A stretch of 39,499 nt of DNA. Source: a virus. The notes below the pieces were generated by a model that saw only the letters and a program-made list of their open reading frames with translations, had not been told where the DNA came from and did not search any database. Where the stretch lies: UHGV virus genome UHGV-0144131. One strand, 5' to 3'. The position numbers and the translations under genes are program-made. The stretch's first letter is position 1. The number at the start of each line of letters is the position of its first letter. Positions 5,687-17,152 of the stretch are shown in pieces.

Positions 5687-7762
5687 CTAATCCTTACAGT
5701 AGTGGTACGCCTCAAAACCGCCAGCGTTCAGTGGGATATCGGGCGCCCATTCGGGGTTAGTGGAGAGAAGCGCGGAAAGCACTTTATCGTTGAAATCTTC
5801 TGTGTCAGGTGCTTCGGTGATCACCTCGTCGTGTACCGTCAACACAATGCTGTAACCGGCATCTTCGATAAGCGGCATGTTTCCGGCCAGAACGTCGCGG
5901 GCGGCCGCCTGGGTGACGTTCTCCACCAGCTTTCCGCCGTAGGTTTTGAGTCGTTGCCATTTACGCGAATAAGAGTTAACACCCATATAGGTGATATTCC
6001 CTTTTTCGATAACCGGAGACGGGTAGCATACAGCGCGTCCGGATGGTAGCTGTATGCGCAGCCACGCGCCATCACGTCGGATTTTAAGATAACCGCAATA
6101 CAATGTTTTTTGCGGTGTGGCGATTGCTGTGCGGACAGTGCGCTCCAGCTCGTACCAGAAATCGCAGGTCGCCGGGTGCGCCCTGCGCCACAGGCGCTTG
6201 AGCGAGTCACATGCGATGAATACACGCTCGGAAAGGCCAAAGGTCGACTTACGTTTAACCGATTCGTCGTACCAGCTTTTCGCCTCGCGGATAACATCGC
6301 GGGGAATGTTTGGCAGTGCGGCGTTCGCCAGCTCGTCGAGATCGAGACCGTAAACCAGAGCAAAAGTGATGAAAGCCGATACACCACCTCCATAACCCAG
6401 ACCGAGTTCCATGACTTTACCGATCTGACGCATGTGTTTATCAACATCATCTGGTGCAATATCGAAAGCTTTTGCATACGCCAGTTTATATAAGTCCGGA
6501 CCCGTTCCGGCGTCGTACTCTCTGAATGCATTCAGTTTCCATTCTTCTCCCGCCAGCCATGCCAGCATACGGCCTTCAATGTTTGACAAGTCACTTACCA
6601 CCAGTTTTTTGCCTGTTGGCGCGATAATGCAGCCACGTAACGCTGAACTGGTTAGTTCCATGATATTGTCAAACAGCAGGTCTGCACATCCGGCTTTCAG
6701 TGCTTCGATGCCTTCGTCTATTTGTTCCTGTTTTAGTGAAGGGCGGGGAAGGTTCTGGGGCTGGAATAGCCGTCCGGCCCAACGACCGGTACGTGACGCC
6801 CCGCAGAACTGTAGCGTACCGCGTAAGCGCCCGTCGTGGCTTACGCCTTTCATCAGTGCCTTGTATTTACTGGTGCTGGTAGTACTGGCTTGCAGGCGGA
6901 TAGCCAGCAGTTCTTTCACGGCAGATGGTAAATCGGGGTCGGCAATACGACGTTCCAGAGTACTGCGTTGCATGTCTGGTAGCTCCACACTGTAGGATTC
7001 AACAATGTGCTTAATCAACGCGTCCCGTTGTGTGGCTGCCTGCACTTCGCCATCAGTCATTTCCTGTGTACGCTTTGCCAGGCGCTTTTGCTCCTGGTCT
7101 ACCGCTTCGATCGCAGCGCGCGCGAGTTGCATGTCCATGCAGACGCCCCGGTCGTTGATCTGCTGATCACGATGCCAGAGCGCCAGCTCTGTCCCCTGAT
7201 AATTCCACTTCGGCAGACGTTTATAGACTTCGCGCATTGCCTCGATATCCAGTCCGGCGTAAGCAACAAAGCGCCGCCATTCTTCCGGGTGGGTTTTGCT
7301 GGTGGCACGGCGCAGTTTGCTGTTTTTCGGGCGGGGCTTACAGAACAGCTGGATCAGCGCTTTACCTTCTTTGTCCTTCGCTTTGTCTTGCGGGACGCCG
7401 AGTATTTCGCAGAGTTCCCCCAGAGACCCCGGGAGACCATGCGCCAGCGCCTGTACCATTGTGTCTCGCCAGCGTTTGGCACTACCTGCAACAACACATT
7501 GGGGAGTGTGCAGTAATGCATGGCGCAACATGGTGCGATCGAAATGGCTGTTGTGTGCATATATTAGTACGCTCTCATCGCTGAGAGCTGTCAGTAGTCG
7601 TGTCGGCAAGTTATAGTCTGTGGTTAAATCGTGTACGCTGACGGGGTCTTCGTCGATTGCCCATGCGAATAACATGATTTCGACTCCTTCTGCATAGACA
7701 TGGGTGCCGTTTTTTATTGGGATTTCGCTGAAAGTTTCGAGGTCTAACCAAAGTTTTTGCAT
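5687..7762 (-). CDS. Family-A DNA polymerase with 3'-5' exonuclease domain
   Basis: N-terminus has exo motifs ([16 protein letters not shown]); central and C-terminal parts have Pol A-like motifs ([15 protein letters not shown]). Start set at the ATG at 7762 ([11 protein letters not shown]); the longest ORF begins with TTG at 7804 inside the 7797..7813 hairpin. Confidence 0.85.
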
Positions 7763-7791
7763 CAAGTAAGGACCCGTTGGATTTAATAAAT

Positions 7792-7818
7792 AAAAAGCCG
7801 CCAAAATGGCGGCTTTTT
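7792..7818. terminator. Rho-independent, bidirectional terminator
   Basis: AAAAAGCCGCC-AAAAT-GGCGGCTTTTT: GC stem flanked by an A-run and a T-run, directly after the SIR2-like gene stop and before the polymerase start. Confidence 0.6.
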
Positions 7819-7838: not shown

Positions 7839-9341
7839 TTAATATGATAAATAATCATACAAGCATAAAAGTCGCCTGTATTGGGTATCAATTTTATGCC
7901 CTGGTTTTGTTAAATAATCTCGTAGTTGTTTCAATGAAATAGTATCGTTTAGTACGCAATACATAATCGTGTTAGCAACTTTATACTCTTTCGTTTCTTT
8001 TAGTATTTCATCAATAGACACAGCCTCACTCTTACATGTTTTAATTCGAGAAAGGTTACCAATGATTTTATCTAGCTGCCGTTTTCTGTATGTCTCGGTA
8101 TTTTCTAGTTCAGGGCAGATAGAACTAAAAGCGTATATTGGAAAGTGTTCGCTATTAGCTATGGTTTGCTTATTCAGTAATGCGATAAGCTGAGAGTTTG
8201 CTTCGTCAACTATTTTAAAATAGTTCTGTATCATTTCAGATTTTGTTTGATAAACATATTGTACGGTTCTTTCTGAACCAACAGCAATGACCATTTCATC
8301 ATTGCGAAGTTCATCTAAATTTTCTGTAATTTTAACCTTTATCTCACCACCACTTTTGATGGTACTCCAAACTTTTTGAACCTTTCTTATGTCCATTGCG
8401 GATACTGGCAAAACTAGTCCAGAGATGGCATCATATACAGCTTTGTAATTGTTTGTTTTTATTTTGTTTATTCTTATGATAGACATGCCTTCTATATCTA
8501 TGTCATGCTCCGTAATTTCAGTTGACATGCTGTCTTTTTCGTATTCAACCAAAAGGAAATTATCTTTTATCCTTTTTGCAAGTTCGGTATTTAAGTCAAC
8601 GTATGAGAATATGGTTTTTAATAAGTACTTAATGTTTTTATCGCTAATACTATACCCTATAAATATGATAGGGTTGTGTATGAATATTGAGAGTAATTGA
8701 GCGCGAATTAACTCATATTTATTGTCGAAGTTTGCGTAGTCTTCACCTGTGATAATTATGTTGTTAGGATCACTAACACAGCCATGTATTTTGTAAACTG
8801 AACCGTATGGGTTACTTAAAAGAATGTTGTTACCAATCAGTGGGTTAAATTCGAAGATATTCTCTACGAGTTGGTCGTAGTTTGTTGTAATGATGGAGCC
8901 TATGTTTTTTCTTGTTTTTATTAAGCTGTTTATTTCCTCCATCATTGACTCTTTTATCTTTAGGTCTTTAAGTATTGAAGTTAAATAAATTTTGAATCGA
9001 CTTAGTTTTTTTCCTTTTTTCATGTGCTCATAGAAAACATCATTGATGTCTTTGAACTTACCGTTACGGTCTTCTGCCAGCTTTTTATTAAAAATATCTT
9101 CAAGTTTTGTAGCTAAGATATCATATCGATAGTCGTCACCTTCTAGGCTTTCAGCTTTCAAATCGTAGTAAAACTCAGCATTACCGGTTAGTTCCATTGC
9201 GACACTCAAAAGAAGACCATCCCAGCTAAATGAGTTTTCTAGATACCGTAGGCTAAATCCTGTTCCAATGAATAGAACAGGGTGGTTTTTATAGTGACTT
9301 ACAAACTCTTGGATTTCCATACCGATTCTCAAAGTTGACAC
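7839..9341 (-). CDS. SIR2-like (SIR2_2 / ThsA-like) protein, candidate NAD+-consuming defence effector
   Basis: 500 aa. N-terminal ~280 aa carries motifs I associate with defence-type sirtuin domains: glycine-rich loop FIGTGFS, TTNYD, KIHG, then IFIGYSISD. C-terminal ~200 aa is unassigned. Strongly AT-rich; GTG start at 9341 with AGAGG RBS; own terminator at 7792..7818. Confidence 0.7.
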   Translation of the reverse strand: MSTLRIGMEIQEFVSHYKNHPVLFIGTGFSLRYLENSFSWDGLLLSVAMELTGNAEFYYDLKAESLEGDDYRYDILATKLEDIFNKKLAEDRNGKFKDINDVFYEHMKKGKKLSRFKIYLTSILKDLKIKESMMEEINSLIKTRKNIGSIITTNYDQLVENIFEFNPLIGNNILLSNPYGSVYKIHGCVSDPNNIIITGEDYANFDNKYELIRAQLLSIFIHNPIIFIGYSISDKNIKYLLKTIFSYVDLNTELAKRIKDNFLLVEYEKDSMSTEITEHDIDIEGMSIIRINKIKTNNYKAVYDAISGLVLPVSAMDIRKVQKVWSTIKSGGEIKVKITENLDELRNDEMVIAVGSERTVQYVYQTKSEMIQNYFKIVDEANSQLIALLNKQTIANSEHFPIYAFSSICPELENTETYRKRQLDKIIGNLSRIKTCKSEAVSIDEILKETKEYKVANTIMYCVLNDTISLKQLRDYLTKPGHKIDTQYRRLLCLYDYLSY

Positions 9342-9431: not shown

Positions 9432-9980
9432 TTAAATCAGTGCTTCAGCATCAGCACCTTCGCTGATATCGTCGAAATCGTCAGCGCTTGCCACTCCGCC
9501 GCCAGCGAATGCATCGCCGTCTCGCAGGAACTGGACTCCGCCGAGTGAGGCATTAATGCGTTTACCGAAATTATTGTCCTGTGCCCAGATATCGATAACG
9601 GCGTTTACATAGCACCCTGCATAGGGACGTCCATCAGCCTGAATTAGTGGCGAACGATCGCGATCAAGAACAGCTGGGCGCGCTTTGTTAGCAGCGTTCA
9701 GGAAGAAATTGCCGGGAAAGCCTTCATACTCTGCTTTTTCATCACCATCATGCAGGCACAGATTGAGTTTTTTCTCCAGCTGGTTATAAATGGACTCCCA
9801 CTTCTCCCCCCATTTTTCCTTCGCTACCTGCTTCATAGCTTTACGGATTTCTTCCAGTTGTGGGTGTTTGGGAGACATTAAAAATACTGCGGAGAAACGC
9901 GGATCGCCTTCGCCGTTTACAGTTTTAGCTTCAAACAGAGACGGGAAGGCCAGACGAACATTGTTCAGCTTCAGTTTCAT
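9432..9980 (-). CDS. ssDNA-binding protein, T7 gp2.5-like (DUF2815-type)
   Basis: 182 aa, N-terminus MKLKLNNVRLAFPSLFEA, acidic C-terminal tail ending DDFDDISEGADAEALI, characteristic of gp2.5-type SSBs. Confidence 0.65.
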   Translation of the reverse strand: MKLKLNNVRLAFPSLFEAKTVNGEGDPRFSAVFLMSPKHPQLEEIRKAMKQVAKEKWGEKWESIYNQLEKKLNLCLHDGDEKAEYEGFPGNFFLNAANKARPAVLDRDRSPLIQADGRPYAGCYVNAVIDIWAQDNNFGKRINASLGGVQFLRDGDAFAGGGVASADDFDDISEGADAEALI

Positions 9981-9995
9981 GGGGATTTCCTTAAA

Positions 9996-11297
9996 TCAGA
10001 TGAGGTCTGCGGTTAGCGTATCGTCGGATACGTCGTCGAAATCATTTACAGGGTTGATATTGAGTGCGGGGCGTGGGTCTGACTCGGGAACGATGGTGGG
10101 TTTACCATCAGCTCGTGTTATCAGTGCCTCGACTTTTGACCAACGGCGCGGACTGGCCTTTTTGATAAGTTTTTCGGCTTTTGTGGGACTAATAAGTTTA
10201 AAGTCGAATACTTCTTCAGTTTTGTACCTGAACTGGTCCTTCAGAAGTGCGCGAGCTGCCTCTTCGTCACTCCAGGCCCGGTTACCTTGTTTTCCTGTTA
10301 CCAGTTTAAACCCCGGTACCGGATGTCCGGCATTGAGTTCATTGTGAACCCGGTCCCGTACTGCCTTTAGCCAGGATTCAATAAAGTCGGCCTGGCTATA
10401 GATCTCTGCAAGCTGCTCAATGGTTAACAGAGGTACACGTGCGCTGGCATTGGTGATTATTTCGCTGACAGGCTTTGTCAGATCTTCAAAATCGCTGGCC
10501 GCTGTTTGTAAATGCTGCATTTTCTGGGCAGTGCAAATAGCTTTTGCTTTACAGAAGCGGCACTGTTTTTCTCCAGGTATGAAGTTTTCCAGTGGTAGTG
10601 TCTCAATGCCTTCGCATTCAGCAATATTGAGAACAAGGATCGCACTGGTTGCGGCCTCCAGCGCCCGTTTACCGAAAGACTGAAGTTCCTGTACGGTTAA
10701 CGACCATTCTGAAACGTGGTTGAGCCTTGGTTGGTGAATAAATAATCTTACAGTTTCAAAGTCATACAGCATGCTGAATTGTTCAAGCGCACCCAGAGCA
10801 TACAGTTGTAGTTGCTCATTTTGTTCTGCATCAATGCGGACGCCTTTGCCATATTTCAGGTCGTGGATTTGTAATTCGTTACCAGCGATGATTATGCCGT
10901 CGGCAGTTCCGAAAGATTCTTCCACACCCGTTATATGTGAGAAATCAACACGTTGTTCAACCAATAGTTCATTATTCTTTGCAAGAGTCCAGACCGTATC
11001 AACATACCGGCCGACGGCTTCGACCATTTCATCATCCACCTGTGGGCCAGATGTATCATCAGGATTTTCGCGAAGGGGGTATGAGCCGAGAAACATAGAA
11101 ACATTGCATCCGGCGTAGTGTTCCGGGTGGCTTTGCCTGTTTCGTAGAACTTTTTCAGCAAGCGCGTGCGCTGCAGTGCCCTCGATTGCAAAAGTTGTTT
11201 CTTTATCCGGTTGTGTGGCCTCCAGCGCCAGACTTCCTGGGCAGCGCATCCATCGATGCGCTGATGATGGAGAAAGTTGTGCATGAACGTCTGGCAT
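9996..11297 (-). CDS. PD-(D/E)xK Cas4/RecB-like nuclease (DUF2800-type)
   Basis: 433 aa. N-terminal [15 protein letters not shown] is a signature I recall for DUF2800; C-terminal Cys cluster ([12 protein letters not shown]) resembles the Fe-S module of Cas4/AddB nucleases. Confidence 0.65.
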
Positions 11298-11299
11298 GA

Positions 11300-12202
11300 T
11301 TAACCCTCCAGTGCTTTTTCAGCCAGGGTGATTACTTCAGCGAGATTTTCATCCGTTACTTCACCAAGTTTCCTGGCTCCCTGTTTTTCCAGAATTGCAA
11401 TAGCTTCTGCCCGGTAACCCCCTTTTGCTAACTGGAGGATCAACCCTTCAGCTTGTTTGCGTAGTGCCGCGAAATCAATTGTATGGTCATCTTTGGCGTC
11501 ATTATTCTGGCTGGAATTTGCTGCGTCTCTGCGTGCAAATTCTTCCTGCAGCTGAAGGTACTCAACACGGTTGATCTCGATATGGCCTTTTTTAAGCATC
11601 TCGTTCAACTTGCGTAAGGTGTGGAGTTCACTGGCTGCTGTGCCGGATACATTTTTGACGTAAAACGGCCCCGTGCGTTCTCCATCTTTGTTACTGGCCT
11701 TTTTCGGCTTAACTTCATCACGCCCATCTGCAGGTGCATCAAGTAGCTGCTCGGCAAAAGCACGTCGCTCGCCGATGGTTGGCAGGTCGTCCCAGAACTT
11801 AAGAATGTTACGGGACAGGTCCAGGAGAGCAGGTTTAAGCAGCGCCCTGGCTCGTTTGACGCCCTGTAATGCGCTGTCGAGAGCATCAATCTGAACTACT
11901 CGTTTATCGCCTTCAGCATCACGGTAGGCAACAGCACGTTGCAGCATGTCTTCTGTGATAGGGGTGGCTACCGGGTAGAAACCAGCCAGTGCGATAACGT
12001 CGCTGAACTCCAGATCATCCAGTGTCATTGCCGCTGACATGTTTTCAGCTTCAGTTGCTGTATCCCGACATTCCTGCACTCGTGAAATCGTGTCAGGATG
12101 CATAACAATGCCTGATGCCATTGTGCGGATAAGACGTTCAAGCAGCGCATTATGTTGTGCCAGAAGTTGATTATTAAGTTCTAGACTGGTTTCTAAACTC
12201 AT
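11300..12202 (-). CDS. Hypothetical early-operon protein
   Basis: 300-aa ORF co-oriented and tightly packed with the replication genes; no motif recognised. Confidence 0.55.
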
Positions 12203-12981: not shown

Positions 12982-13605
12982 CTAACGTTTACGGCGGTAA
13001 ATACGGTGTTCGATCATTACACCTATGATCTGTAAGTTCATATCTGCACTACGAAAAATAGGGTAATCAGGATTTAGGGGGATTAATTCAAAGTCGTCGA
13101 TGCCGATTCCTAATGGACGGTATTTTTTAAATGTAGCTTCGTGACCGTCGTTTTTGGCGACAACAAACTCCCCTGGTGCAGGACATAGATCAGGATCGAT
13201 GATAACAATGTCTCCTTCTTTAAACTCTGGTTGCATGCTGTCGCCATCGATACGTAATGCGAAGCATGTTTCTGGAATGTCAGAGTCTGCCAAAATATAT
13301 TCAAATTCCCCTGTCAGATCTGTTATGTCTCTTGCTTCTGTAAGCTCTCCTGCCTGAACGTAACTTAATATAGGTATGCGTCTGGTACTTATCTCCGCGA
13401 GAGGCATAATATTTTTACCGTTCAGTAGCCAGTCTGGGCTACATTTCAAGGCCTTAGCCAGATCCAGAAGATTGCGTGGCTTTCTGGTTCGTCCGCTTTC
13501 GATGGATTCTATGGATTGTTGGCTAACCCCTGCAGAATTCGCTACTTCCACTTGAGTCATTCCTAATTCCAAACGACGTGCTTTAAAACGGGCTGCGAGA
13601 GACAT
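12982..13605 (-). CDS. cI: CI-like repressor (XRE HTH + S24 LexA-like peptidase domain)
   Basis: N-terminal HTH (MTQVEVANSAGVSQQSIESIESG) and C-terminal S24-like domain with GDSM and a downstream Lys. Start set at the internal Met (MSLAARF, 13605) so the operator palindrome lies in the intergenic region. Confidence 0.85.
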   Translation of the reverse strand: MSLAARFKARRLELGMTQVEVANSAGVSQQSIESIESGRTRKPRNLLDLAKALKCSPDWLLNGKNIMPLAEISTRRIPILSYVQAGELTEARDITDLTGEFEYILADSDIPETCFALRIDGDSMQPEFKEGDIVIIDPDLCPAPGEFVVAKNDGHEATFKKYRPLGIGIDDFELIPLNPDYPIFRSADMNLQIIGVMIEHRIYRRKR

Positions 13606-13628
13606 GGGATTAGTCCTTCTGGGTTGTA

Positions 13629-13650
13629 TTAATGTGTATCCCCACATTAA
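13629..13650. promoter_or_regulatory. Candidate operator palindrome in the cI-cro intergenic region
   Basis: TTAATGTG-TATCCC-CACATTAA, a perfect 8-bp inverted repeat between the divergent repressor genes. Confidence 0.5.
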
Positions 13651-13668
13651 AAACAATTTTTGTTGTAT

Positions 13669-13698
13669 TTGACAAACCTCATTTGTTGTTGCTAAATA
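13669..13698 (+). promoter_or_regulatory. Candidate PR-like promoter for cro and the rightward operon
   Basis: TTGACA, 18-bp spacer, TAAATA, about 28 bp upstream of the cro start. Confidence 0.4.
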
Positions 13699-13725
13699 CC
13701 ACTAAAATTGTATGAGGTGAAAGCA

Positions 13726-13938
13726 ATGACCTTAGCGACCCGAGTAAAAGAACGACGTAAAGAACTCAAAATGACGCAAGTTACGTTGGCTGAGCTCACA
13801 GGAGTGAGCCAGCAGGCAATAAACAGAATTGAAAGTGGTGTTATTGCTCGGCCACGTTATCTTCTTGAAATGTCTATAGCATTGGATTGCGACCCTAATT
13901 GGCTGTTGTATGGCTCACAAAACGATAAAAAGGCTTAA
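13726..13938 (+). CDS. cro: Cro-like XRE-family HTH regulator
   Basis: About 70 aa HTH protein (MTQVTLAELTGVSQQAINRIESG) divergent from cI; start at 13726 chosen for the GAGGTGA RBS. Confidence 0.75.
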   Translation: MTLATRVKERRKELKMTQVTLAELTGVSQQAINRIESGVIARPRYLLEMSIALDCDPNWLLYGSQNDKKA

Positions 13939-13941
13939 CCC

Positions 13942-16134
13942 ATGTCCGATAGCAAACCATGGGGAGCTACGCCTGATGAGTGGTTTCATTTCGACCTGGT
14001 ATTGGGGAGAACTGATCATCTTCTCCCAGTTGTATGTAACCCCAGTGCGACCATATCCCCTGATAGTAAACTGAAAGCGTTGGGTAAGACGCCGAGTCGC
14101 TATAACCGGGACCGCCAGGTCACCGGTATTGCTCAATGGACCGGGCATGTTGTTACTGAGCATGATTTTGCCCGCTGGTCGAATGAACCGGATTATGGCA
14201 TCTGCGTGCGTACAGGCCATGGCTGGCTGGCGCTGGACTGTGATAGCGAAGATGAAGACATTCAGGCAGATATTCGCAAAACGCTTGTGCAACGTCTGGG
14301 TGAGTTGCCGCCGCGACGCTGGCGAGCAAACAGTAATAAGTGTCTGTATCTGCTGGCCGTTGATGGTGATTTCCGTAAGCGTATCCATCGCCTGGCGGGG
14401 GATATGGGCATTATCGAGTTGCTGGCGAACGGGCAGCAGTTCGTTGCCTGCGGTACGCACAGCAGCGGCGCGCGTATTGAATGGGACGGCGGTTTGCCGG
14501 ATGAACCTCCGGCTATTACTGGTGAGCAGCTTGAAACGCTGTGGCAGCGCCTGGCTGAACAACTCCCTGTGTCGGTAACCACCGAAGCGGGCAACACGAA
14601 GATGCGCGACCGATCAGCATTCACGCCCGGCGCGACGGATGATACAGCTGAATATCTTGATGCCAATGGCTGGACGCTGCTGGATGGCGCAAATGGTGAA
14701 CGATATATCCGCTGTCCGTTTGAAGACGGCCACAGTAGCGGGGGCGATCCAACAAGCACAGTTTATTTTCCTGCGGGAACCGCGGGCTTTGAGCAGGGGC
14801 ATTTTAAATGCCTGCATGCCAGTTGTGCGCATCGTGATGACGGAGATTTCCTTAATGCCATCGGGATCCGCAACGACGATTTCGAAGATCTGACCAGCAC
14901 CGAAGTGGCGGAACCTTTACCGCTGCCTGCTTTCGAGCGTGATAAATGGGGGCGTATCGAGGCAACAATCAGCAACGCAGCCAAAGCAGTAGTACGCCCT
15001 GATTTTGTGGACATCGATATTCGCTTTGACCAGTTCCGCGACGAAATCATGTTTGCCCCTGCAGGATCCGGACAATGGCGGGCATTCACTGATGCGGATT
15101 ATGCGCGCCTACGCATCACGATGGAAAAGCGGGGATTTAAACCTGTTGGTCGTGAACTTATTCGCGATGTGGTGTTACTTGCAGCCGATGAACAACCATT
15201 CGATTCAGCGATCACCTGGCTGAACGGACTGGAGTGGGATGGCGTGCCGCGCATCGAATGTTTCTACCATACGCACTTCGGTACCGCCGACACGCCTTAT
15301 ACCCGTGCGGTGTCTATGTACATGTGGACCGCGTTGGCGGGGCGAGTACTGGAGCCAGGCATCAAAGCGGATATGGTGCCGATCCTCGTTGGTCCGCAGG
15401 GCTGCGGTAAGTCTTCCGGAGTGGAGGCACTGAGCCCTGATCCTGCGTTTTTTACTGAAATCTCTTTTGCCGAAAAAGACGATGATCTCGCTCGAAAAAT
15501 GCGTGGTCGGCTGGTGGCAGAGATTGGTGAACTGCGCGGACTTAATACCAAAGAGCTGGAGTCAATCAAAGCGTTTGTGACGCGTACTCACGAAAACTGG
15601 ATCCCGAAATACCGGGAGTTCGCCACCCAGTTTCCTCGTCGCCTGGTGTTCGTTGGTACCACTAATGAGGACGAATTCCTTGCGGACAAGACTGGTAACC
15701 GTCGCTGGCTCCCCGTGGAAGTGTCGAAAGTCGACGTGAAAGCGATAAAAAGAGATCTCCTTTTACTTTGGGCTGAGGCTCGTGAGGTGTTTCAGCGTCT
15801 GGGGGGTATCCAGTTCCGTGAGGCTGAACAACTGGCAGCGAGTGTCCATGAACAGTACACCATCAAGGATGCTTGGCTTGAAACGGTAGAGAAATGGCTC
15901 GACACGCCAGACCTGATGACTAATGAACTTCCGCGAAATTGCGAATTTTTACGCGCAAGTGATGTTTTGCGTGATGCGATTGGGCTAAATCCTGACCGCA
16001 TCGGAAAACGCGAAGAAATGCGAATTAGTAATGTTTTGCAAAATTGCGGGTATAAGCGTGCCCAAAGGCGAATTGGGGGGAAAATGACTCGAATTTTTGA
16101 GGCGGTGTCCCAACCTGTACCAACCTCAAAATAG
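13942..16134 (+). CDS. Replication primase-helicase (prim-pol-like N-terminus, VirE/D5-like P-loop NTPase C-terminus)
   Basis: 730 aa with Walker A (VGPQGCGKSS) and Walker B-like (LVFVGTTNEDEF) motifs in the C-terminal half; first gene after cro, the usual place for the replication initiator. Confidence 0.8.
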   Translation: MSDSKPWGATPDEWFHFDLVLGRTDHLLPVVCNPSATISPDSKLKALGKTPSRYNRDRQVTGIAQWTGHVVTEHDFARWSNEPDYGICVRTGHGWLALDCDSEDEDIQADIRKTLVQRLGELPPRRWRANSNKCLYLLAVDGDFRKRIHRLAGDMGIIELLANGQQFVACGTHSSGARIEWDGGLPDEPPAITGEQLETLWQRLAEQLPVSVTTEAGNTKMRDRSAFTPGATDDTAEYLDANGWTLLDGANGERYIRCPFEDGHSSGGDPTSTVYFPAGTAGFEQGHFKCLHASCAHRDDGDFLNAIGIRNDDFEDLTSTEVAEPLPLPAFERDKWGRIEATISNAAKAVVRPDFVDIDIRFDQFRDEIMFAPAGSGQWRAFTDADYARLRITMEKRGFKPVGRELIRDVVLLAADEQPFDSAITWLNGLEWDGVPRIECFYHTHFGTADTPYTRAVSMYMWTALAGRVLEPGIKADMVPILVGPQGCGKSSGVEALSPDPAFFTEISFAEKDDDLARKMRGRLVAEIGELRGLNTKELESIKAFVTRTHENWIPKYREFATQFPRRLVFVGTTNEDEFLADKTGNRRWLPVEVSKVDVKAIKRDLLLLWAEAREVFQRLGGIQFREAEQLAASVHEQYTIKDAWLETVEKWLDTPDLMTNELPRNCEFLRASDVLRDAIGLNPDRIGKREEMRISNVLQNCGYKRAQRRIGGKMTRIFEAVSQPVPTSK

Positions 16135-16289
16135 AGGTTGGTACATTTTAACTAATTGAATTTAAAGGCCAGTACCAACTGTACCATCTGTACCAACCTA
16201 ATTACTAAGAACCCCATATATATATATAAGTCGCTTGGGGAAAAGGTTTGAAAAGAGCTGGTACAGGTGGGTACAGGTTGGTACAGGCC
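16113..16289. repeat. Iteron cluster flanking an AT-rich tract; candidate replication origin
   Basis: At least 8 copies of a GTACC-core motif in both orientations (ACCTGTACCAACC, GGTTGGTACA, CAGTACCAACTGTACCATCTGTACCAACC, CTGGTACAGGTGGGTACAGGTTGGTACAGG) around (AT)n at 16216..16229, directly after the primase-helicase gene. Confidence 0.5.
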
Positions 16290-16415
16290 GAACAAGGAAT
16301 TTTTTGCACATAACAGCGTGTAATAAGCGAATCGGAACTGCGTTATCCACACCCACGGATAAACAAACGTGGTTCTCAGAAAATTTTTTCGTAGCAAAAC
16401 GTAGAGGTCAGAGCT

Positions 16416-16850
16416 ATGCGTAGTATTCAACAGGTTTTAGAGCGCTGGGGTGGCTGGGCTGCCAATAGCAACACCACAGTGAGCTGGGCTCCAATAGCGG
16501 CGGGATTTAAAGGGCTGGTAGTCAGCAGCTCGCCTGGCAGGCTGAGTTGCTGTGACGACGATGGCCTGATTATCGATGCTTGCGTCTGTCGACTGCAGCA
16601 GGTCCGTAAGCCTGAGGAACTGGACGTCATTATGCTGTACTACGTCTACGGGTTAAGCAAACGTGAGATAGGGCGGCGGCGTCGCTGTTCTGAAGGATTT
16701 ATCCGCCAGCAGTTGCAGGTAGCTGAGGGATTCATTGAGGGGTGTCTCTGCATGCTGGGTGTGAGCCTTCAGATGGATCCTGAGGTCGAAATTCAAAGGG
16801 ATGAAAAAAGTATTAGTGCGCTACGCAAAAACTGCGCTACGCTGGTATGA
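16416..16850 (+). CDS. Q-like late-gene antitermination protein
   Basis: 144 aa beginning MRSIQQVLERWGGWAA with a Cys-rich centre (CCDDD...C.C), matching my recollection of lambdoid Q-family proteins; sits just upstream of the lysis cassette. Confidence 0.75.
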   Translation: MRSIQQVLERWGGWAANSNTTVSWAPIAAGFKGLVVSSSPGRLSCCDDDGLIIDACVCRLQQVRKPEELDVIMLYYVYGLSKREIGRRRRCSEGFIRQQLQVAEGFIEGCLCMLGVSLQMDPEVEIQRDEKSISALRKNCATLV

Positions 16851-17129
16851 GTTGAATTTCTGACCTCAACGAAGAGCTCCAAATCATTGGGGCTTTTTTA
16901 ATGCTTTATTCTCAGTAAAAGTTAATAAAACAGGGTTTTCGTCGCGAAAAAACGCTATGCAGTTTTTGCCCTTTTTTATGCACCTTTTATTCACTCGAAT
17001 TTCGCCATTCTGGACCACTTAAGTTGATTAAATAGGCCTTTCATCGCAAATCTATTGCGAGCGGTGATCGTGTGGTTCCTATAACGTACATTATGTTAAA
17101 TAACTTCCTTTTTTAACAAATTTAACAAG

Positions 17130-17152
17130 GTTCGCTATGGCGAACTTTTTTT
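17130..17152 (+). terminator. Rho-independent terminator in the late leader (tR'-like)
   Basis: GTTCGC-TATG-GCGAAC followed by seven T, between Q and the holin. Confidence 0.55.

Follow-up and report, generated by a model that had tools for sequence, protein, structure and literature searches.

The stretch of DNA analysed here (UHGV virus genome UHGV-0144131; 39,499 bases, hereafter the window) is a temperate, APSE-like prophage of Escherichia coli. To the right of the genes for a cI-like repressor and a Cro-like protein it encodes a 730-residue primase-helicase, and between the early operon and the antiterminator gene Q lies a region (16106-16285) that combines short repeats in both orientations with an alternating AT tract (Table 1). 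Judging from its sequence and that of its relatives, this region is very likely the replication origin of the phage, with the primase-helicase encoded immediately upstream acting as the initiator.

The repeat region and the adjoining primase-helicase gene

A search of the whole window with TGTACCAAC(C), allowing one mismatch at most, gave 13 matches, nine of which fall in 16106-16285 and four of which are isolated elsewhere. If the 13 were spread evenly, 0.06 would be expected per 180 bp, corresponding to a Poisson probability of ~2e-17 for nine or more. An earlier note, made from the letters of the window alone, had described at least eight copies of a GTACC-core repeat in both orientations, and both the number and the orientations are borne out. 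The core is present as well, but it is too narrow a description, as the unit is 9-10 bp long and reads T-G-x-x-x-C-x-A-C-C. Likewise, the three tandem GGTACAGG units listed there are real, with a start that has to be moved by one base (16260-67, 16270-77 and 16280-87), and the placing of the array immediately downstream of the gene applies to the copies at or after the stop codon, whereas the first two sit in the last nine codons. The array extends from 29 nt before the end of the stop codon to 151 nt past it, and six of its nine copies are intergenic.

The left and right arrays, which lie on opposite strands, both point toward the AT tract, in the window as well as in its relatives. The tract itself, ATATATATATATA, is the only run of at least four AT units in the window, in agreement with the (AT)n tract noticed earlier among the repeats, and sits in or at the edge of the least stable 16-bp and 30-bp windows of the entire 39.5 kb, as calculated from nearest-neighbour free energy. 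The head-to-head copies at the end of the gene form a perfect inverted repeat, the 6-nt loop of which contains the primase-helicase stop codon TAG (16132-16134). On the plus-strand transcript this inverted repeat makes a terminator-like hairpin followed by TTTT (16146-16149), and the pair in this window may serve as a transcription terminator in addition.

The protein encoded upstream has primase and helicase domains. Residues 53-185 form a Prim-Pol (AEP) domain (Pfam PF09250, E = 1.6e-10) and residues 427-639 a VapE/D5-type helicase domain (Pfam PF05272 VapE, E = 2e-60), and the PHROG matches are to primase and helicase families. Using phmmer, residues 393-657 match the Rep1-DNA complex of the Staphylococcus aureus pathogenicity island (SaPI) SaPI1 (PDB 7PDS) with an E value of 8e-34; this complex is the only solved relative by sequence. 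The last 90 residues (641-730) gave no match in Pfam, and the protein gave none in NCBIfam. For this C-terminal part, AlphaFold2 models of residues 561-730 and 638-730 predict a winged-helix topology of H-S-H-H-S-S over residues ~640-721, the domain model having a pLDDT of 85.8 and a pTM of 0.74. The predicted elements comprise a recognition helix (residues 689-701), the strand S2 (residues 704-711), a G-G turn and the strand S3 (residues 714-721), which is the second strand of the wing hairpin and has block-mean pLDDT values of 76-94 over its length. A winged-helix fold class for the C-terminus is plausible on these models.

Several open reading frames (ORFs) run across the repeat region (Table 1). 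Neither ORF 16152-16430 on the minus strand nor ORF 16235-16423 has a Pfam or PHROG match, the Prokaryotic Genome Annotation Pipeline (PGAP) places no coding sequence across the region in the equivalent E. coli prophages, and the reading frames of the region are not conserved in the near-identical prophage KOr019. The ORFs across 16152-16430 are probably artefacts, as had already been suspected. Gene P4 of phage APSE-1 (L002 3123-3344), annotated as hypothetical, overlaps the (AT)n tract and the right array of the APSE-1 counterpart, and is probably a mis-annotation.

Table 1. Positions of the features at and around the repeat region
Feature	Position in the window	Strand	Remarks
cI-like repressor	12982-13656	minus	
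Cro-like gene	13708-13938		
Primase-helicase	13942-16134	plus	730 residues
Codons 715-719 (M-T-R-I-F)	16084-16098	plus	inside S3; proposed specificity determinant
Degenerate copy, TGTCCCAAC	16106-16114	plus	inside last codons of primase-helicase gene
Direct copy, TGTACCAACC	16116-16125	plus	inside last codons of primase-helicase gene
Perfect 12-bp inverted repeat, TGTACCAACCTC / GAGGTTGGTACA	16116-16127 / 16134-16145		head-to-head repeat pair
Inverted copy	16136-16145	minus	
Left array, AGTACCAAC, TGTACCATC, TGTACCAACC	16171-16179, 16180-16188, 16189-16198	plus	three direct copies, 9-bp spacing
Spacer between arrays	16199-16255		~57 bp; GC about 0.33-0.37 in 60-bp windows
(AT)6.5 tract, ATATATATATATA	16216-16228		proposed melting site
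Right array, TGTACCAGCT, TGTACCCACC, TGTACCAACC	16256-16265, 16266-16275, 16276-16285	minus	three copies, 10-bp spacing
ORF	16152-16430	minus	probable artefact
ORF	16156-16251		probable artefact
ORF	16198-16356	minus	probable artefact
ORF	16235-16423		probable artefact
Q antiterminator	16416-16850		

Conservation of the layout and covariation with the wing strand

To compare the region across relatives, 190 loci that contain the 3′ end of the gene were collected from IMG/VR and GTDB genomes, yielding 118 distinct origin regions from E. coli, Yersinia, Hamiltonella APSE, Xenorhabdus and others. At least two plus-strand copies followed by at least two minus-strand copies are found in 110 of the 118 regions, and the inverted pair at the stop codon is likewise present in 110 of 118. 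The gap between the arrays has a median length of 60 nt and is 68% AT, with an alternating AT run of at least 8 nt in 94 of the 110 regions, and the spacing within the left array is 9 bp in 189 of 194 intervals. The sequence of the repeats varies among these loci, which fall into more than 14 repeat classes, all of them variants of T-G-x-x-x-C-x-A-C-C. For instance, the same layout at the same place is built from AGACAACC in Yersinia phage YeP4, from GTAACAACC in APSE-1 and from GGAACCACC in the E. coli prophage KOr019. An architecture that is kept while the repeat sequence turns over is what the co-evolution of an initiator with its iterons predicts.

Each repeat copy of KOr019 departs from that of the window at three positions, while the AT spacer is ~90% identical, and the two primase-helicases are 98% identical up to residue 714 and diverge from residue 715 to the end. 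Across the loci, the repeat class tracks the five residues that follow a conserved G-K: MTRIF, VTRIF and MTRVF occur with TGTACCAACC, MTRIW with TGTACCCACC, KMRIF with TGTCCCAACC, KQRIW with TGTCCCCACC, QQR[IV]F with TAGACAACC, QQRVW and QIRVW with TAGACCACC, K[CSR]K[VLI]W with TGGAACCACC, V[LQCS][KR]VW with TGTAACCACC, LMKVW with TGTTACCACC, GCKVW with TGCAACCACC and MTKAW with TGTAGCCACC. Three minimal pairs, namely MTRIF/TGTACCAACC against MTRIW/TGTACCCACC, QQR[IV]F/TAGACAACC against QQRVW/TAGACCACC and KMRIF/TGTCCCAACC against KQRIW/TGTCCCCACC, have A at repeat position 7 where residue 719 is F, and C where it is W. Within the subfamily that has the conserved recognition helix, position 7 is A in all three F classes and C in all 11 W classes; with the classes treated as independent units, the exact probability of this split is 1/364 (hand arithmetic).

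A mutual-information scan over 87 distinct full-length proteins and 730 columns ranked residues 715 and 716 first, followed by the tail residues that are encoded by repeat DNA and then by residues 707-708 in the facing strand. Lying within residues 714-721, the covarying residues would form part of the second strand of the wing hairpin in the predicted structure. Moreover, the codons for MTRIF have undergone many synonymous changes among loci of the TGTACCAACC class, with five different arginine codons in use, yet the peptide is retained, which argues for selection on the peptide rather than for recent co-transfer.

Two further observations concern the arrays themselves. Their spacing is asymmetric, both in the window and in the 110 regions, with 9 bp on the left and mostly 10, otherwise 9 bp, on the right. 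A comparison of window 16199-16255 with L003 3600-3655, from two near-identical prophages, showed ~90% conservation of the spacer; in the flanking right array, by contrast, the two outer copies carry changes at the same positions, and the copy between them has diverged too. The change between these two sets of arrays is concerted, and the swap of a single cassette does not explain it.

Proposed mechanism, known origins and alternatives

The closest known counterpart is the origin of the SaPIs, in which Rep is both the initiator and a self-loading helicase and binds iterons of 5-6 nt through its C-terminal winged helix (PMC9371898). SaPI origins have 6-12 iterons immediately downstream of rep, with an AT-rich centre and at least two iterons per side in opposite directions (PMC9371898), and two hexamers are thought to load (PMC7581432). 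The same organisation is found in the pri-rep-ori of E. coli phage-inducible chromosomal islands (PICIs), which has been functionally tested (PMC6092414). Similarly, the window has a helicase of superfamily 3 (SF3) and D5-VapE type that is homologous to SaPI1 Rep1 and fused to a primase, as in SaPI5 PriRep5, and its putative origin lies directly 3′ of the initiator gene, with two opposed iteron sets flanking an AT-rich centre. In SaPIs and PICIs, initiator and origin form cognate pairs, and the C-terminus of the initiator and the iterons also appear to be cognate here, on the grounds of covariation. A winged helix reads the iterons in SaPI; one is predicted at the C-terminus here, for which no structural match to that of Rep was obtained. 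The two systems differ in the size of the repeats, which are 9-10 bp here compared to 5-6 nt in SaPI, and in the fixed 3 + 3 arrangement with an extra inverted pair overlapping the stop codon. In addition, the present element is not a satellite but a complete phage, temperate and about 35-40 kb long. A PICI itself, being a satellite that has no virion genes and depends on a helper, was considered and rejected: the window has genes for lysis, for terminase and for structural proteins, and is accordingly a phage whose putative origin is of the PICI type. At the level of sequence, the locus shows all the features of the SaPI/PICI type of origin. Computation supports an origin of this type, that of a self-loading helicase with iterons beside its gene, in what is a complete temperate phage, and the computational tests of initiator domains, SaPI/PICI layout, conservation and covariation all agree with the initiator-dependent origin that the earlier note had suggested.

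By analogy with SaPI Rep, we propose that the C-terminal winged helix would bind the 9-10 bp repeats, and that the two inward-pointing triplets would place the helicase subunits to the left and right of the (AT)6.5 tract, probably as two hexamers. The tract would melt and the SF3-type helicase would load itself; the fused Prim-Pol domain would then prime, and the phage's own left-operon polymerase module would extend. Within the winged helix, the wing strand (residues 714-721) appears to read the variable positions of the repeat, residue 719 (F or W) corresponding to position 7 (A or C) and residues 715-717 to positions 3-5. A third, conserved binding element may be formed by the inverted pair at the stop codon.

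A more specific proposal, which we put forward tentatively and to which we grant slightly less than an even chance, is that the wing strand S3 reads the repeat by a modular code and that diversifying selection has given rise, in prophages that are otherwise near-identical, to at least 14 initiator/origin pairs that are orthogonal to one another. Under such a code, F or Y at residue 719 would specify A and W would specify C at repeat position 7, and residues 715-717 would specify positions 3-5, with M/V-T-R for TAC, K-x-R for TCC, K-x-K for GAA, V-x-K/R for TAA, L-M-K for TTA and Q-x-R for AGA. Escape from titration or hijacking by resident prophages and satellites is a possible driver of the diversification.

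Several points weigh against the origin and the specificity proposed here. Binding, melting and replication are assigned by analogy with SaPI Rep, beyond the anatomy, conservation, covariation and homology that are observed at the locus. When the two AlphaFold2 models were compared with the PDB by Foldseek, all matches were to generic winged-helix domains and weak (best E 0.03); neither the C-terminal domain of SaPI Rep nor the origin-binding domain of any other initiator was among them. The recognition helix is conserved across the repeat types, which is unusual for the main reader of a site. The codons of residues 715-719 and the first repeat are just 10-20 nt apart, and hence physical linkage contributes to the covariation. 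As a universal rule, the correspondence of F/W to A/C was rejected, since it fails in distant backgrounds, such as APSE VCRVW with GTAACAACC and L185 QIRAW with AAGACAACC. On the other side, linkage as the sole cause is made less likely by the minimal pairs, by the compositional pattern and by the synonymous variation.

Other known origins resemble the locus less closely. The alpha protein of satellite phage P4 unites primase and helicase with an origin-binding winged helix at its C-terminus, which recognises short repeats of the TGTTCACC type, and P4 needs two separated clusters, ori and crr, which lie several kb apart with crr adjoining the alpha gene. The window shares with P4 the joining of primase, helicase and (predicted) C-terminal winged helix in a single polypeptide and the repeat cluster next to the gene. 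It differs in having one cluster (16106-16285), with no second, crr-like cluster found in the window at up to one mismatch, and P4 alpha has a different primase type; a sequence search with the primase-helicase gave no match to a P4 structure. A P4-type origin was rejected on the single cluster. In phage lambda, the iterons lie inside the initiator gene, and the initiator O is not a helicase but needs P and the host DnaB. Both loci have phage-initiator repeats beside an AT-rich unwinding region in the early rightward operon, whereas in the window the arrays are opposed around the AT tract and the initiator would itself be the helicase-primase; a lambda-type origin was rejected because six of the nine copies are intergenic and the proposed initiator has its own helicase and primase domains.

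Papillomavirus E1 and SV40 large T are SF3 helicase-initiators that act at inverted short repeats beside an AT-rich element, again with two hexamers thought to be involved (PMC7581432). The window resembles them in the combination of an SF3 helicase-initiator with inverted short repeats by an AT-rich element, and differs in that its predicted DNA-binding domain is C-terminal and its primase fused. These are eukaryotic viruses, whose initiators have a DNA-binding domain of another fold on the N-terminal side of the helicase and no fused primase. Iteron plasmids (RepA, pi, RepE and TrfA) also have winged-helix initiators and use inverted repeats as additional sites, as the window would with its predicted winged helix. 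However, plasmid iterons are 17-22 bp long, run in one orientation and have the unwinding element at one end, and such plasmids need DnaA boxes and DnaB loading, compared to units of 9-10 bp, opposed arrays and a perfect DnaA box in 19 of 121 related regions here. An iteron plasmid origin was rejected on unit length, orientation and DnaA-box conservation. The sole perfect copy of the DnaA-box consensus TTATCCACA in the window lies at 16343-16351, 58 bp to the right of the arrays, and the 19 regions that have the box are those sharing the Q-upstream segment of the window; being confined to these, the box lies outside the conserved module and is either a matter of chance or an E. coli-specific addition. 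Global GC skew was also tried as a locator of the origin, but it turns near the divergent cI/cro promoters and follows the direction of transcription, and therefore does not locate the origin.

The same region could instead be regulatory, which we regard as unlikely. The repeats would then bind the primase-helicase or another factor for regulation rather than origin firing, either as a roadblock or terminator gating early-operon read-through into Q, or as a site that titrates the initiator. The location between the early operon and Q fits such a role, as does the inverted pair, which in the window conforms to the pattern of an intrinsic terminator (12-bp stem, 6-nt loop and TTTT), and iteron plasmids use inverted repeats for autoregulation. 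However, of 109 related regions only 59 have the T-run after the hairpin, and the GGAACC and AGACCACC types lack it, so that termination may be an added local role rather than the conserved one, and a terminator as the sole explanation was rejected on this ground. Moreover, two triplets facing each other across a conserved (AT)n tract are more than a roadblock requires, and the homologous SaPI/PICI systems that are so organised are tested origins. A regulatory role could coexist with origin function. Far less probable is an intrinsic terminator accompanied by chance or selfish short repeats lacking a function of their own, which we consider next to untenable: the terminator-like hairpin is present, but the clustering has a chance probability of ~2e-17, the layout is kept in 110 of 118 regions despite the turnover of the repeats, and between near-identical phages all copies change together at the same positions.

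That a different regulator binds the repeats, the outcome which the earlier note had named as counting against its proposal, is very improbable as well. Repeats in both orientations are typical of the operators of dimeric regulators, and cI, Cro, Q or another DNA-binding protein of the phage might be considered. Yet L010 and L012, which have GGAACC repeats, encode cI and Cro 99-100% identical to those of the window; L003 and L007, also with GGAACC repeats, have a Q that is 99% identical; and L004, whose repeats are identical to those of the window, has a Q only 44% identical. Likewise, the left-operon ORFs (9432-12202) are 98-100% identical in phages with GGAACC repeats, and the 705-residue left-operon ORF (5687-7804) is 98% identical in L008, again with GGAACC repeats. 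Between 5.7 and 19.2 kb, each gene has a version of at least 97% identity in some phage of the other repeat type, the test of covariation with other genes covering ~10 kb on either side of the region. None of the cI, Cro, Q and left-operon genes covaries with the repeat type, and these discordant combinations exclude their products as readers of the repeats; in addition, the repeat is missing from the intergenic region of cI and cro (13657-13707). A packaging site (pac/cos), an attachment site (attP arm sites) or a partition site, all of which can also have short-repeat arrays around AT-rich cores, would be a still more remote explanation, as the covariation is with the tail of the primase-helicase. 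The region is intact in the middle of integrated prophages as well as in the deposited genomes of YeP4 and APSE-1, and is therefore not attP. As for packaging, it is 2.4 kb away from the terminase genes and adjoins a replication gene. Between the primase-helicase gene and Q, the interval to which the search for partition genes was confined, no genes were found.

Implications and gene neighbourhood

The present analysis provides a concrete origin candidate for the APSE-like (Sendosyvirus-like) temperate phages, a group that includes phages of aphid symbionts and common prophages of E. coli, Yersinia, Xenorhabdus and Pectobacterium. In the papers searched we found no earlier description of an origin for APSE-like phages; one APSE genomics paper used only a generic origin-prediction program. 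An origin organisation that has been called unique to PICI satellites (PMC6092414) is also present in full phages with a homologous helicase. If the code and the orthogonal pairs proposed above hold, the PICI-type origin would be a type of phage replicon rather than specific to satellites, and satellites may have drawn on it. The most interesting by-product is the apparent correspondence of residues to bases in the wing strand. The natural series of repeat and wing-strand variants, which includes minimal pairs that differ by one residue and one base, is a data set for a rule of protein-DNA recognition, and the variants could supply orthogonal replicons. In practical terms, ORFs annotated across the region, such as P4 of APSE-1, are flagged as probable artefacts.

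Many E. coli chromosomes hold the same DNA at 97-99.9% identity, and PGAP annotates solely a “VapE domain-containing protein” and an “antiterminator Q” at this locus. Remoter relatives are the Yersinia phages YeP4-6 and the Hamiltonella APSE phages, the deposited genomes of YeP4 and APSE-1 being those of complete phages, at 35-36.5 kb. Holin and endolysin genes lie near the region as well, and the window also has genes for the small and large terminase subunits, together with ~20 kb of further plus-strand ORFs. A scan of the entire window against Rfam gave no match.

The window and KOr019 share an almost identical leader upstream of Q (16300-16415), in contrast to the repeats directly before it; the leader has no Rfam match and no strong match to a sigma-70 promoter on the plus strand. 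A mosaic junction comes directly after the putative origin, where alignments break at 16462-16889 (Q gene), and a different Q allele (44% identity) is found in phages that otherwise match the window at 95-100% identity. In the left operon, a low-GC ORF of 500 residues on the minus strand (7839-9341) is shared with only a few relatives (L004, L008 and L030); it lies within the lowest-GC kilobase of the window (8001-9000, GC 0.33) and looks like inserted cargo. Between Q and the holin gene, a terminator-like hairpin at 17127-17148, with a 9-bp stem followed by TTTTTTG, is a candidate for a terminator that is overridden by Q.

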